A stretch of 20,855 nt of DNA from a virus (IMGVR_UViG_3300042691_014730:1-20855), one strand, 5' to 3'. Shown: positions 3,290-14,563, counted from the stretch's first letter. Numbers and translations are program-made. The notes: generated from the letters alone by a model not told the origin.

Positions 3290-3349
3290 GGACTCATCAG
3301 GATAGACCTAATCTATCTACGTCCCCTAATTCTAAGGGACGTTTCGTCC
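3290..3349 (-). ncRNA. hammerhead ribozyme 1 (type II)
   Basis: Minus-strand RNA: GGAC-GAAA-CGUCCCUU(AGAAUU)AGGGGACG-UA^GAUAGA(UUAGG)UCUAUC-CUGAUGA-GUCC. Full core (CUGAUGA, GAAA, GUA triplet); stem I 6 bp, stem II 4 bp, stem III 9 bp. Predicted cut between 3318 and 3317. Confidence 0.9.
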
Positions 3350-3738: not shown

Positions 3739-3784
3739 AAATACTCCTTTAGTGACGTTAAGTCACGTTGTTAATTGATTGTTC

Positions 3785-3838
3785 TGGTGTTTCGTCTTAT
3801 TAAGACTCATCAGCCTAGGTTAAATCCTAGGGACACCA
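3785..3838 (-). ncRNA. hammerhead ribozyme 2 (type III)
   Basis: Minus-strand RNA: UGGUGUC^CCUAGG(AUUUAA)CCUAGG-CUGAUGA-GUCUU(AAU)AAGAC-GAA-ACACCA. Canonical core, GUC triplet; stem I 6 bp, stem II 5 bp, stem III 6 bp. Predicted cut between 3832 and 3831. Confidence 0.95.
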
Positions 3839-3839
3839 A

Positions 3840-4132
3840 GGATAAGAGTACGTTACCTCATACTCCTATCCTAGTGATCCTCAGTATGCTGTTATCCTGT
3901 CCTAGTACAATAACCTAGGAGTTCTTATGGCATACCAAGGTACTCTAAGTTTTCTCGGTTTTTCCGAGCTATACCATATAGGTACTTAGAGTGAATGAAG
4001 TTACTTCTCGCTAAGATAGTTCTCGCTATCGAAGTCCATAACTCCCAACGGCTTATGTCTAAAGCAGTTACTATCCGTCTAGCCCAACAGTCAAGCTGTT
4101 AGCCCTTTTATAGTAACCTATGTCTTGTTACC
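3840..4132 (-). ncRNA. unassigned highly structured RNA (about 290 nt)
   Basis: ORF-free. Helices read by eye: 4117-4110/4074-4067 (8 bp), 3992-3984/3950-3942 (9 bp closing a 3-way junction), 3940-3930/3889-3879 (11 bp enclosing a possible pseudoknot), 3871-3861/3850-3840 (11 bp). Confidence 0.65.
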
Positions 4133-4417
4133 TTAGATAAACGCTATACCATTTTCAACTTTAGTCAAGGTTATAGCTTGTTTATTAAGTAACTTCTTAA
4201 GTCTATTGACCTCGGCGATTAGTTTTTCTTTAGAGCTTTTGCCCTTAAGATAGAAGCCTCGTCTAAATAAACTTATATCACTAGGGCAGTTAGTTTTAAC
4301 GTACCCTGAGTTAAACACTTTTTTGTTAGCTATAACGTCTTGACGTTTTATAGCGTTTTGTTTATACCCTACATTAGCCCTTTTACAAGCTAATGCAGTT
4401 TTACTTAATGTTCTCAT
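4133..4417 (-). CDS. basic hypothetical protein, 94 aa, possibly nucleic-acid binding
   Basis: ORF track; AGGAG SD 11 nt upstream, inside hammerhead 3 stem III; about 21 K/R versus 5 D/E by my count. Confidence 0.75.
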   Translation of the reverse strand: MRTLSKTALACKRANVGYKQNAIKRQDVIANKKVFNSGYVKTNCPSDISLFRRGFYLKGKSSKEKLIAEVNRLKKLLNKQAITLTKVENGIAFI

Positions 4418-4430
4418 AAGTTAAGTTACT

Positions 4431-4486
4431 CCTATTTCGAGTCAAAAGACTCATCATCAGTAGGGACTCAATTATCCCTAGATAGG
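4431..4486 (-). ncRNA. hammerhead ribozyme 3 (type III, extra U between A9 and G10.1)
   Basis: Minus-strand RNA: CCUAUC^UAGGGA(UAAUUGAG)UCCCUA-CUGAUGA-U-GAGUC(UUUU)GACUC-GAA-AUAGG. AUC triplet; stem I 6 bp, stem II 5 bp, stem III 5 bp. Predicted cut between 4481 and 4480. Confidence 0.8.
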
Positions 4487-4556
4487 GAGAGTTAGTGTTA
4501 GCTAACTCCCAATTAGGTTACTAAGTAATATTATAGCGAGAGAGATTTTTATAATA

Positions 4557-4754
4557 TTAGCTAGCATGGTTATCCATTTTTTCAAGTTCCCATAATTTCT
4601 CATAAGCACTATAGTGTGAATAACAAATTATTTCTTCTTTTTCAGATTCATGATTTTTAAAGTATATTACTTTATACAAGTTATTATACTTATCATAGAT
4701 TATTTTACATAAGAATCCAGTATTTACATTAGTTACTTGTTTAAGAAATATCAT
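4557..4754 (-). CDS. hypothetical protein, 65 aa; first ORF of the leftward arm
   Basis: ORF track; GGAG SD. Confidence 0.75.
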   Translation of the reverse strand: MIFLKQVTNVNTGFLCKIIYDKYNNLYKVIYFKNHESEKEEIICYSHYSAYEKLWELEKMDNHAS

Positions 4755-5035: not shown

Positions 5036-5184
5036 ATGCGTGTGTTTAATACCTGCGTGTGCGTAACGTGTGCGTGTAGCGTGTGTGCGAGCGTATGTGT
5101 GCGTATGCACGAGCGTGTGCGTAACGTGTGTGCGCATAATGCGTGCGTAGGCGTGTGTGGGTGCGTTTGCGTAGGGGGGTAGGG
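5036..5184. repeat. alternating purine/pyrimidine (GT/GC) low-complexity tract ending in a G-run
   Basis: Mostly GTGTGCGT-type sequence; 18-bp GCGTGTGCGTAACGTGTG at 5055 and 5113; GGGGGGTAGGG at 5174-5184. Confidence 0.9.
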
Positions 5185-5409
5185 ACGTTTCAGGATATGC
5201 CTGACATTGACCGAGTACACTCTCCCACTTTACCCTCTCAACTATAGAAACTCTCCAACACTCACCTACTTATCCTTCAACGCTTCTAATAACAACTCTT
5301 AGTACATTAGCCCTTAAAACGCACAGAAATAGGGTTATTTAACATCGTATTAGCACACCCTAATACTTAGTATAAAAGTCATTACTCAACGTTTAAAAGG
5401 ATTCTGACG

Positions 5410-12511: not shown

Positions 12512-14563
12512 ATGGAAGATAATAAACCTGTTGCAAAAAACGATCCACTAGATCAATACTTTGCAAGAAAATCAGCTAGTGAATGCGCTCACGTTTTACT
12601 TAATAAAGGTAGAACATTCTTTAATATATTAGAAGGTAATTCTTATATATACAAAATTCAAAATATGTGGAGAGCATATTCAGGTTCATATAGTACTGAA
12701 CAAGGTGAAGGACACCAAATTTCGTTTACTGGTGAACAAGGAGAGTTGGTAAGATTGCCTGTCAATCACTTCTCTAACTTAGCTAGACACACATATAACA
12801 TGGTTACTGCCAATCGTCCTACGATGGAAGCTAGAGCAGTAAATACCGATTATAAATCTCTTTCTCAAACATATTTAGCTAATGGTATATTAGACTATTA
12901 CATGAGAGAAAAGGGATTAGAAGAAGTTTTAAATAAAGCAGTTGAGTTTGCTATTGTTTTAGGTTCAGGATATTTAAAGCTTGAGTGGAACGCTACTTCA
13001 GGGGATGCTGTAGATGTTGATCCTGAAACAGGTGAATTGCATTATACTGGAGAAATAGAGTTTAAACCTATTGATCCTTTAAACGTTATCTTTGATGGTA
13101 CAAAAGAAACTTGGGATCATGAATGGATTGTTGTTAGATCGTTTAAAAATAAATATAATCTAATGGCTAAGTTCCCAGAGTTAGCAAGTAAAATTGAACA
13201 ATTAGATACTAAAACAGCTAATTCGTTATATCGTTTATCTCTTTGGTCAAATGATGACACTGTTGATATTCCAGTATTTGAATTCTTTCATAAGAAAACA
13301 GAAGCAATGCCTGAAGGAAGGTATATGCTTTTTTGTTCAGATGATATCGTATTGTTAGATACTCCTATGCCTTATAATCAGATTCCAGTACACAGAATTG
13401 TTCCTAGAGAAATATTAGGAACATGTTATGGTTATTCTGATATGTTTGATGTTTTTCCTATTCAAGAAATGATTAATGCTACATATTCAGCAATCGCTAC
13501 TAATCAGAATGCGTTTGCTGTTCAAAATGTGTACATTCCAAGAGAAGCAGATATAAATATTACATCGATTGCTGGAGGAATGCAAGTTTTTGAAGGAAAT
13601 GCTAAACCTGAGGCTTTAAACTTAACACAAACACCCGCAGAAGTTTATAAGTTTTTGGAAGTATTAATTCAAGCAGCTGAAACGATGTCAGGGATTAACT
13701 CTGTAACAAGAGGAAGCCCTGGTGCTTCTTTGGAATCTGGTGCAGCATTAGCTTTAGTTCAATCTATGTCGTTACAATTTATTAATGGGTTACAACAAAG
13801 CTACGTTAAAATGGTAGAGTCTGTTGGAACTGGACTTATTCAAATTCTACAAGATTATGCTCATACACCAAAGTTAGTAGCTATCGTTGGTAGAAATAAT
13901 AGATCATTATTAAAAACTTTTACTGGTTCAGATATTGCAAATATTAAAAGAGTTGTAGTAGATATCGGAAATCCGTTATCTAGAACAACAGCTGGTCGTG
14001 TTCAAATGGCTGATCAGTTAGCTCAAATGAAACTATTAAAGAATCCTCAACAATATTTCCAAGTATTAAATACTGGTAGATTAGACGTATTGTTTGAAGG
14101 GGAAATGAGTGAATTATTATTAATTAAATCTGAAAACGAAAGTCTTTTATCTGGTGAAAAAGTAAATGCTTCTATATTAGATCAACATAGATCACATATC
14201 TTAGAACATAAATCTGTTATGGCTGATCCTGATTTAAGAAAAGACCCTAATTTAATTCGAAACGTTCAAGATCATATCTTAGAACATATTAATTTATTAA
14301 GAAACGGTGATCCTGATTTACTTCAGTTAATTGGTGAACAACCTCTTAATCCACCTCAAGCAGCTGGTAATCCAGAAATGCCTCCAGGTCCGATGAATAA
14401 TCAAGAAGTAATTGAAGGAAGTCCTATTCCAGATGTTCAACAGAGTCAAACTTTAGTGAATCAAGCAGACAATATACAACAAGCAAACGTTCCTGGTGTA
14501 GACCCTAGTCTATTACCTAACGCCGCAATACAAGAACAAGCACCTGGTGGAGTTAAAAAATAA
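12512..14563 (+). CDS. portal protein (P22 gp1-like) with Pro/Gln-rich C-terminal extension
   Basis: 683 aa downstream of terL; GSGYLKLEW, YGYSDMFD, PIQEMIN, SGINSVTRG, SGAALALVQ are portal-like segments. Confidence 0.88.
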   Translation: MEDNKPVAKNDPLDQYFARKSASECAHVLLNKGRTFFNILEGNSYIYKIQNMWRAYSGSYSTEQGEGHQISFTGEQGELVRLPVNHFSNLARHTYNMVTANRPTMEARAVNTDYKSLSQTYLANGILDYYMREKGLEEVLNKAVEFAIVLGSGYLKLEWNATSGDAVDVDPETGELHYTGEIEFKPIDPLNVIFDGTKETWDHEWIVVRSFKNKYNLMAKFPELASKIEQLDTKTANSLYRLSLWSNDDTVDIPVFEFFHKKTEAMPEGRYMLFCSDDIVLLDTPMPYNQIPVHRIVPREILGTCYGYSDMFDVFPIQEMINATYSAIATNQNAFAVQNVYIPREADINITSIAGGMQVFEGNAKPEALNLTQTPAEVYKFLEVLIQAAETMSGINSVTRGSPGASLESGAALALVQSMSLQFINGLQQSYVKMVESVGTGLIQILQDYAHTPKLVAIVGRNNRSLLKTFTGSDIANIKRVVVDIGNPLSRTTAGRVQMADQLAQMKLLKNPQQYFQVLNTGRLDVLFEGEMSELLLIKSENESLLSGEKVNASILDQHRSHILEHKSVMADPDLRKDPNLIRNVQDHILEHINLLRNGDPDLLQLIGEQPLNPPQAAGNPEMPPGPMNNQEVIEGSPIPDVQQSQTLVNQADNIQQANVPGVDPSLLPNAAIQEQAPGGVKK

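Follow-up and report, generated by a model that had tools for sequence, protein, structure and literature searches.

A type III hammerhead ribozyme that shares part of stem III with a Shine-Dalgarno sequence in a phage gene cluster: anatomy, conservation and candidate roles

The locus and its three hammerheads

The window, the whole stretch of viral DNA analysed here, comprises the first 20,855 nt of a viral contig that measures 84,855 nt and bears direct terminal repeats. Its right part carries the terminase, a P22-type portal and further structural genes, and its left part a minus-strand series of small genes, the last of which encodes an ATP-dependent DNA ligase. Where the leftward and rightward gene blocks diverge, the intergenic region contains a GC-rich, low-complexity tract of CA/CG repeats (5040-5200, ACGCACAC-like units), which yields spurious ORFs on both strands. 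Three hammerheads, here named HH-A, HH-B and HH-C, lie within 1.2 kb on the coding strand between co-oriented small genes (Table 1), and the same arrangement is found in the related lineage described below. HH-B, the main subject of this paper, occupies the gap between a 65-aa gene and a 94-aa gene.

Table 1. Features of the hammerhead region, with positions counted from the first letter of the window
Feature	Position	Strand	Basis
HH-C, sister type II hammerhead	3290..3349	-	scanner; stems I and III covary in relative
HH-A, sister type III hammerhead	3784..3839	-	Rfam 46.7 bits; all three stems covary in relative
13-bp hairpin flush with 5' side of HH-A stem III	3840..3871	-	fold of upstream 45 nt
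Downstream gene, basic 94-aa protein, putative	4133..4417	-	ORF list
AGGAG Shine-Dalgarno sequence of the 94-aa gene	4429..4433	-	sequence; conserved in relative
HH-B, type III hammerhead	4431..4486	-	Rfam RF00008 25.7 bits; motif scanner; conservation in relative
9-bp hairpin, one G.U, 6-nt loop	4487..4510	-	sequence, folds; 8-bp counterpart in relative
Upstream gene, 65 aa	4557..4754	-	ORF list; synteny in relative

Searches of both flanking genes against PHROGs and Pfam returned no function. The 94-aa protein falls into just two protein clusters among 5.8 billion proteins, and its relatives are confined to the sister lineage; it is weakly like (E=3e-4) a protein built of homing-endonuclease-associated (HNH_repeat) units, and a weak match to a repeat of a 1083-aa protein was also seen. 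From the TAA stop of the upstream gene, a block of about 24 nt (minus strand, 4536-4559, TAATATTATAAAA.TCTCTCT) is near-invariant between the lineages, and the 25 nt downstream of it are not; candidate roles for the block are those of a promoter, a processing site or a binding site. On account of a TATAAT box, a sigma-70 promoter was considered in the interval from the upstream gene to HH-B and rejected, because the scan gave it no support and the box is not conserved.

HH-B is read on the minus strand, and its 5-bp stem III pairs CCUAU (4486-4482) with AUAGG (4435-4431). C17 is position 4481, so that the cut is predicted between 4481 and 4480, and the trinucleotide preceding it is AUC. Stem I (7 bp, 6-nt loop) joins 4480-4474 with 4467-4461; the core CUGAUGA (4460-4454) is followed by an extra U (4453) between A9 and G10.1; stem II (5 bp, UUUU loop) joins GAGUC (4452-4448) with GACUC (4443-4439), and GAA stands at 4438-4436. 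The conserved core of RF00008 (Hammerhead_3) is present in full, that is, CUGAUGA, GAA, A4435-U4482 (A15.1-U16.1) and C4481 (H17), and the three helices have the layout of that family, in which stems I and II end in loops and stem III is open; HH-B differs from it in the extra U and in having AUC instead of the usual GUC. An alternative core register without the extra U was rejected, since G12 would then be replaced. Immediately upstream, a hairpin with the strands GGGAGUUAG (4510-4502) and CUAACUCUC (4495-4487) around the loop 4501-4496 directly abuts the 5' strand of stem III with zero spacer, and after cleavage 6 nt would separate it from the new 3' end of the upstream RNA. This hairpin was also considered as an intrinsic terminator and rejected, as no U-run follows it. 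All of these elements, namely the hammerhead, the adjoining 9-bp hairpin, the extra U and the overlap of stem III with the Shine-Dalgarno (SD) sequence of the 94-aa gene, had been proposed in a first-pass annotation of the DNA, and all of their coordinates were borne out on the minus strand. Visual inspection for a pseudoknot of loop 1 with the flanks gave just a weak 5-bp A-U match. The 5' strand of HH-B stem I (UAGGGA) resembles the SD region (UAGGAG), and UCCCUA is present twice, at 4488-4483 and 4466-4461.

The first-pass annotation had also stated that a one-nucleotide insertion at the position of the extra U is tolerated in a natural viroid hammerhead, and the literature agrees. According to PMC3705267 and PMC1636495 (both citing De la Pena and Flores 2001), the (+) hammerhead of CChMVd carries an extra A10 between A9 and G10.1, exactly the HH-B position; C or G in place of A10 was harmful, and U raised the trans-cleavage rate 3-4 fold. 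The CChMVd element is a viroid replication ribozyme, in which the extra base serves the global fold of the viroid, whereas HH-B lies in a phage mRNA. The same extra U was found in unrelated phage type I hammerheads of L035 (1295-1353, minus) and L046 (5831-5890), two contigs that also hold a type III hammerhead with an SD in stem III, and a type III hammerhead of L025 has a C at the insertion position. On this evidence, the U insertion is a recurring, tolerated variant and not a defect, with no sign of slowed cleavage.

The two sister hammerheads differ from HH-B in their relation to the SD. HH-A, with a predicted cut after C3832, is preceded by a 13-bp hairpin flush with stem III, and in the relative this site holds a 10-bp hairpin whose sequence differs. 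The SD of HH-A lies about 35 nt downstream, beyond a separate conserved hairpin, and is unmasked; that hairpin (3744-3766, minus; L004 3650-3675) covaries, with GUGAC...GUCAC in the window and GUAGC...GCUAC in the relative. The resulting order of ribozyme, hairpin and ribosome-binding site (RBS) recalls the synthetic RiboJ insulator. In RiboJ-type ribozyme insulators, self-cleavage leaves a structured 5'-OH leader. After cleavage of HH-C, predicted to follow A3318, the upstream fragment would terminate at its 3' end in stem III of the ribozyme itself, a 10-bp hairpin. The SD of HH-C, which starts 8 nt (window) or 2 nt (relative) past the stem II strand, is likewise unmasked. All three predicted cuts have in common that the new 3' end would lie 1-6 nt beyond a stable hairpin and that the RNA with the new 5'-OH end would begin directly with the stem I hairpin. 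The stretch between the stop of the 94-aa gene and the HH-A hairpin (3872-4132, minus; L004 3286-3545) comprises about 260-290 nt of helix-rich, non-coding sequence with block-wise conservation in the relative; it matched no Rfam family, and it would form the 3' part of an RNA released between HH-B and HH-A.

Conservation and chance controls

The sole relative lineage found (L004, L005, L011, L018, L021, L023; the lineage of the window itself comprises L019 and L020) is represented by an 84.4-kb contig, with a terminase of 89% and a 94-aa protein of 73% identity, and it contains all three hammerheads at matching positions. Stem II of HH-B reads GGGUG/CACCC in the relative and GAGUC/GACUC in the window, which amounts to two double compensatory changes with no pair broken. 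Outside stem II and loop 2, the two lineages agree at all 44 hammerhead positions, the extra U and the SD tail included; stems I and III are invariant between the two available lineages and are therefore uninformative for covariation. The flanks have diverged, with 28/46 positions identical upstream, 13/24 within the hairpin and 5/11 in the SD-ATG spacer. The HH-B hairpin has as its counterpart in the relative an 8-bp hairpin with another sequence, and AGGAG and its 11-nt spacing are kept in spite of differences at 6/11 spacer positions. The elements singled out in the first-pass annotation (hammerhead, flush hairpin, extra U, overlap of stem III with the SD) are thus all retained in the sole relative lineage. 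The anatomy, the conservation and the covariation are direct observations on the DNA, as is the recurrence in other phages described below.

Stem III is frozen between the lineages because the SD shares its strand. Stem I and loop 1 of HH-B (4461-4480, minus) are also identical, at 20/20 positions, while in the same comparison HH-A and HH-C show free, compensated changes in their stems. At the sequence level, this identity points to a constraint on the stem I/loop 1 sequence itself.

Searches for further homologues returned the same two lineages only, which makes the comparison a shallow one. BLAST against 50,697 deposited phage genomes gave no match to the region, near or distant; scanning viral contigs under protein guidance and searching viral and metagenome contigs with DNA patterns gave just the two lineages, and so did a homologue search in 5.8 billion proteins and 1.84 billion cluster representatives. 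L022, a further candidate homologue, was rejected as a chance match inside a coding region. More distant terminase relatives (L007-L010, L012-L017) contained no hammerheads in the DNA fetched.

The covariance model by itself gives HH-B a low score. Rfam Hammerhead_3 matches 4488-4429 at 25.7 bits (E=0.13 in the window), below the Rfam gathering score of 48.5, and zero matches were obtained in the window at gathering thresholds; the score is low because the insertion makes the model skip stem II as a local end. In the relative, all three copies likewise escaped Rfam, which gave no matches in the more distant relatives either; since the three copies in the relative were missed, the model is insensitive for these phage forms. 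A motif scanner purpose-written for hammerheads was used after these misses. On the whole genome it reported HH-A, HH-B, HH-C and one marginal match, compared with 0-1 matches in each shuffled genome (mean about 0.25), and a stricter version gave 0 matches in 615 kb of shuffled phage DNA. Flush hairpins of at least 8 bp end at 0.6% of genome positions, and both type III hammerheads have one.

These controls bear on the reading that HH-B is an inactive relic or a chance motif, for which the score of 25.7 bits against a gathering score of 48.5 and the insertion in the core might be adduced. The core is conserved throughout, stem II is compensated, the extra U is retained despite the diverged flanks, the shuffle controls gave near-zero matches, the same U insertion is present in the unrelated phage type I hammerheads of L035 and L046, and the viroid ribozyme is active with U at this position; the probability that we assign to a relic or chance origin is close to negligible. 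On the sequence evidence, HH-B is a genuine hammerhead ribozyme.

The Shine-Dalgarno overlap and cleavage-dependent translation

Three of the five SD bases (A4433, G4432, G4431) form the outer 3 bp of the 3' strand of stem III. The ATG at 4417 is 11 nt from the SD in both lineages, with no alternative start, and elsewhere in the genome the AGGAG-to-ATG spacing has a mode of 5 nt, with 39/57 cases at 4-7 nt; the SD of the 94-aa gene is a weak site. The energetics of the overlap were estimated by nearest-neighbour models, which ignore tertiary contacts and hence bound the effect on the SD rather than measure it. In its local context HH-B has the hammerhead fold as its minimum free energy structure, and stem III makes a net contribution of -2.2 to -2.9 kcal/mol; with longer flanks, competing pairings appear in the model. 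On cleavage, the modelled probability of an open SD increases from 0.023 to 0.13 (window) and from 0.0013 to 0.0045 (relative), and the gain in SD accessibility in the wider context is about 3-6 fold. For the ribozyme alone, an inactive fold (-17.7 kcal/mol) is isoenergetic with the active one (-17.6 kcal/mol). In the inactive fold, UAUC (4484-4481, the cut site included) pairs with G5-G8 of the core (GAUG) and the SD is left unpaired, so that uncut RNA need not be silent. A cleavage-released RBS would have its SD paired in the uncut RNA and free afterwards; in HH-B, 3/5 SD bases are paired, and the inactive fold frees the SD too. As modelled, the overlap of stem III with the SD is partial and weak, though conserved.

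It was proposed in the first-pass annotation that HH-B is a natural ribozyme-gated translation timer. Developed further, the proposal would be that the fusion of stem III with the SD mainly serves to silence the 94-aa gene until self-cleavage, with a delay set by AUC, the competing inactive fold and the extra U. Two of its premises hold. The anti-SD strand CCUAUC would stay on the upstream fragment, where only 5 bp would join the two molecules, and it should therefore dissociate. A switch in which cleavage liberates the SD has indeed been built for bacteria: as reviewed in PMC12192606, synthetic RBS-freeing hammerheads function in E. coli, with the SD paired in a ribozyme helix and the mask removed by cleavage. 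These devices mask the whole RBS in a lengthened helix under ligand control, whereas in HH-B the mask covers 3/5 SD bases and no sensor is evident. The trinucleotide before the cut is the best argument for a delay, though one drawn from a different ribozyme. AUC has been described as essentially absent from classical natural hammerheads, and Carbonell et al. proposed a core-pairing trap to explain this near-absence; in the ELVd hammerhead, AUC slowed co-transcriptional cleavage through pairing with the core (PMC1636495). The UAUC-GAUG pairing in HH-B is of the same kind as the ELVd trap and isoenergetic with the active fold, and by this analogy AUC and the equally stable inactive fold could slow HH-B cleavage, which would favour a timer.

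Further support for a gating role comes from other phages. Viral contigs were scanned for a canonical core followed by GAAA, one base and AGGAG; AGGAG was thus pre-selected, and start codons and ORFs were not. Nine of the 30 loci listed are valid type III hammerheads, and they belong to three unrelated families with the SD in stem III (L029/L031/L035/L046/L047, L033/L044 and L037/L041). An ATG lies 5-8 nt past AGGAG in all nine, and in seven of them this ATG opens an ORF of at least 30 aa. The corresponding counts for the control pentamers, among the loci listed, were 0/12 for CTCCT and 1/26 for GAGAG, a comparison of one SD pattern with two control pentamers that involves small numbers; the excess after GAAAN counts in favour of the timer, as do the SDs that two of the three families bury entirely in a stem III of at least 7 bp. 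The family of L033/L044 has AUC before the cut too, and the register of L037/L041 is ambiguous (AUC or AUA), with an 11-bp stem III in the best register of the scanner. Second type III hammerheads in L029, L031 and L047 have an upstream hairpin that is either flush (L031) or 1 nt off (L029, L047). Scanning for the stem I sequence of HH-B led to another phage, L092, in which an ORF stop is followed after 8 nt by a 13-bp hairpin flush with a type III hammerhead; AAGGAG shares 3 nt with its stem III, and an ATG lies 7 nt beyond. In total, at least four other phage hammerhead families have an SD inside stem III, several of them with a hairpin just upstream, and by sequence the HH-B layout is one instance of a recurrent phage design. 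No published description of a natural hammerhead with an SD inside a helix was found in the searched part of the literature.

Several observations weigh against a timer at HH-B. Just the AGG of AGGAG is paired, by a stem worth about 2-3 kcal/mol; the modelled opening of the SD gains 3-6 fold only on cleavage; the inactive fold has the SD open without cleavage; the SDs of HH-A and HH-C are unmasked; and the SD is 11 nt from the ATG, compared with the genome mode of 5 nt. Natural hammerheads usually cleave within seconds to one minute, and this typical cleavage time is short relative to an infection cycle. Moreover, U at the extra position accelerated the viroid ribozyme (PMC3705267). Of the timer proposal, the overlap itself stands, being real and conserved, with SDs in stem III recurring in other phages; the timer function is not supported, and we consider a timer at HH-B doubtful. 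The coupling between cleavage and the SD is judged, from the models, to be real but modest and short-lived, a coupling that orders events (cut, then translate) and is no timer. A broader version of the proposal would regard the succession of flush hairpin, type III hammerhead, SD in stem III and AUG as a widespread phage device that makes translation cleavage-dependent, with the HH-B gate tuned by AUC, the inactive fold and U10; this, too, we hold to be an unlikely, if tentatively arguable, reading.

Transcript processing and RNA ends

Since HH-A and HH-C leave their SDs unmasked, SD masking is not the common reason for the trio. The three hammerheads stand between co-oriented genes and give hairpin-capped ends, and they thus fit the role proposed in the literature for clustered phage hammerheads, that of dividing long transcripts into single-gene mRNAs (PMC3088659, PMC6765202). 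Clustered prophage hammerheads cleave in vitro and in vivo, as reported in PMC3088659. HH-A, HH-B and HH-C form a cluster in the sense used there by Perreault et al. (2011), with two or more hammerheads that flank single genes or short gene blocks in a space of a few kb, and they resemble those clusters, which are often triple, in their mixed topologies (here III, III and II) and in their small co-oriented phage genes. They differ in that stem III of HH-B is partly SD and that both type III copies have a flush hairpin; neither the fusion of SD and stem III nor the flush hairpin was found in the consulted sections of PMC3088659 or by searching it for SD/RBS terms. On balance we think it probable that HH-B is an active intercistronic processing ribozyme, in which release of the SD is a built-in but modest consequence.

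Under the processing reading, HH-B, HH-A and HH-C would cut a leftward early polycistronic transcript into single-gene mRNAs. The cut between C4481 and U4480 would leave the mRNA of the 65-aa gene ending in the stable hairpin and six further bases (CCUAUC) with a 2',3'-cyclic phosphate, and the downstream mRNA would start with a 5'-OH directly on the stem I hairpin. In bacterial RNA decay, hairpin-capped 3' ends and 5'-OH ends are expected to resist 3' exonucleases and 5'-monophosphate-dependent nucleases, and both ends produced at HH-B would likewise be expected to withstand the usual exonucleases and 5'-end-dependent decay. The flush hairpin probably stacks coaxially on the short stem III and would so aid its formation. 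Through the fusion of the SD with the 3' strand of stem III, 30S binding and the active ribozyme fold are mutually exclusive, and cleavage would free the SD for good, because a 5-bp duplex between separate molecules falls apart. Cleavage, the stability of the ends and the effect on translation are what we infer from the observed anatomy. The constancy of stem I and loop 1 in HH-B is unaccounted for by the processing reading.

The mutual exclusion could also work in the opposite direction. A 30S subunit that bound the SD first would block stem III and the cut, and ribosome availability would then decide whether the two genes share one mRNA. The SD is the last-transcribed part of the ribozyme, the 30S site and the 3' strand of stem III share AGG, stem III is marginally stable, and the active and inactive folds are balanced, all of which would suit such a coupling. 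A weak SD at 11-nt spacing should, however, compete poorly with intramolecular folding, and no comparative signal separates this model from the others; we regard it as improbable.

A further reading concerns the RNA between two of the cuts. HH-B and HH-A together might release an RNA of about 650 nt (4480-3832) that carries the 94-aa gene together with the structured, conserved non-coding region (290 nt) and that could be circularised by a host RtcB-type ligase. Two co-oriented type III hammerheads do bracket a gene and a conserved non-coding stretch. The end chemistry is also favourable, as 5'-OH and 2',3'-cyclic phosphate ends suit RtcB ligase. The two hammerheads are unrelated, so the ribozymes themselves cannot ligate the RNA, and Perreault et al. 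sought spliced or circular products of clustered phage hammerheads and found none (PMC3088659). Excision with circularisation is in our view very improbable. Reverse coupling, excision/circularisation and an inactive relic are all less likely than processing and the timer.

The role of bacterial and phage hammerheads has been in question since their discovery in 2011, and their purpose was described as still undefined in a 2019 review (PMC6765202). HH-B and the unrelated phage examples share a compact, recurrent layout, in which hairpin, ribozyme and RBS are fused without spare bases, and this layout makes two predictions, namely that cleavage produces protected RNA ends and that cleavage frees the SD. 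If translation depends on cleavage, the layout would be a natural precedent for a synthetic design that was reached independently, and a gate of this kind, if truly widespread, would be the first defined function for phage hammerheads. If translation is independent of cleavage, the hairpin-capped ends still support the view that these ribozymes process mRNA.

Other arrangements of related parts were seen in the scans. In a 241-kb phage contig (L093, 6740-6800), a hammerhead-like element with the stem I of HH-B has UAAA replacing GAAA (at G12) and is possibly an inactivated copy. Two type I hammerheads from other phages, in L055 (about 2967-2996) and L060 (about 12878-12903), both on the minus strand, have AGGAGG as the 3' strand of their stem III hairpin, followed by the cut site (GUC) and then by AUG, at once or 1 nt later; cleavage there would fall between the SD-like box and the possible start codon.
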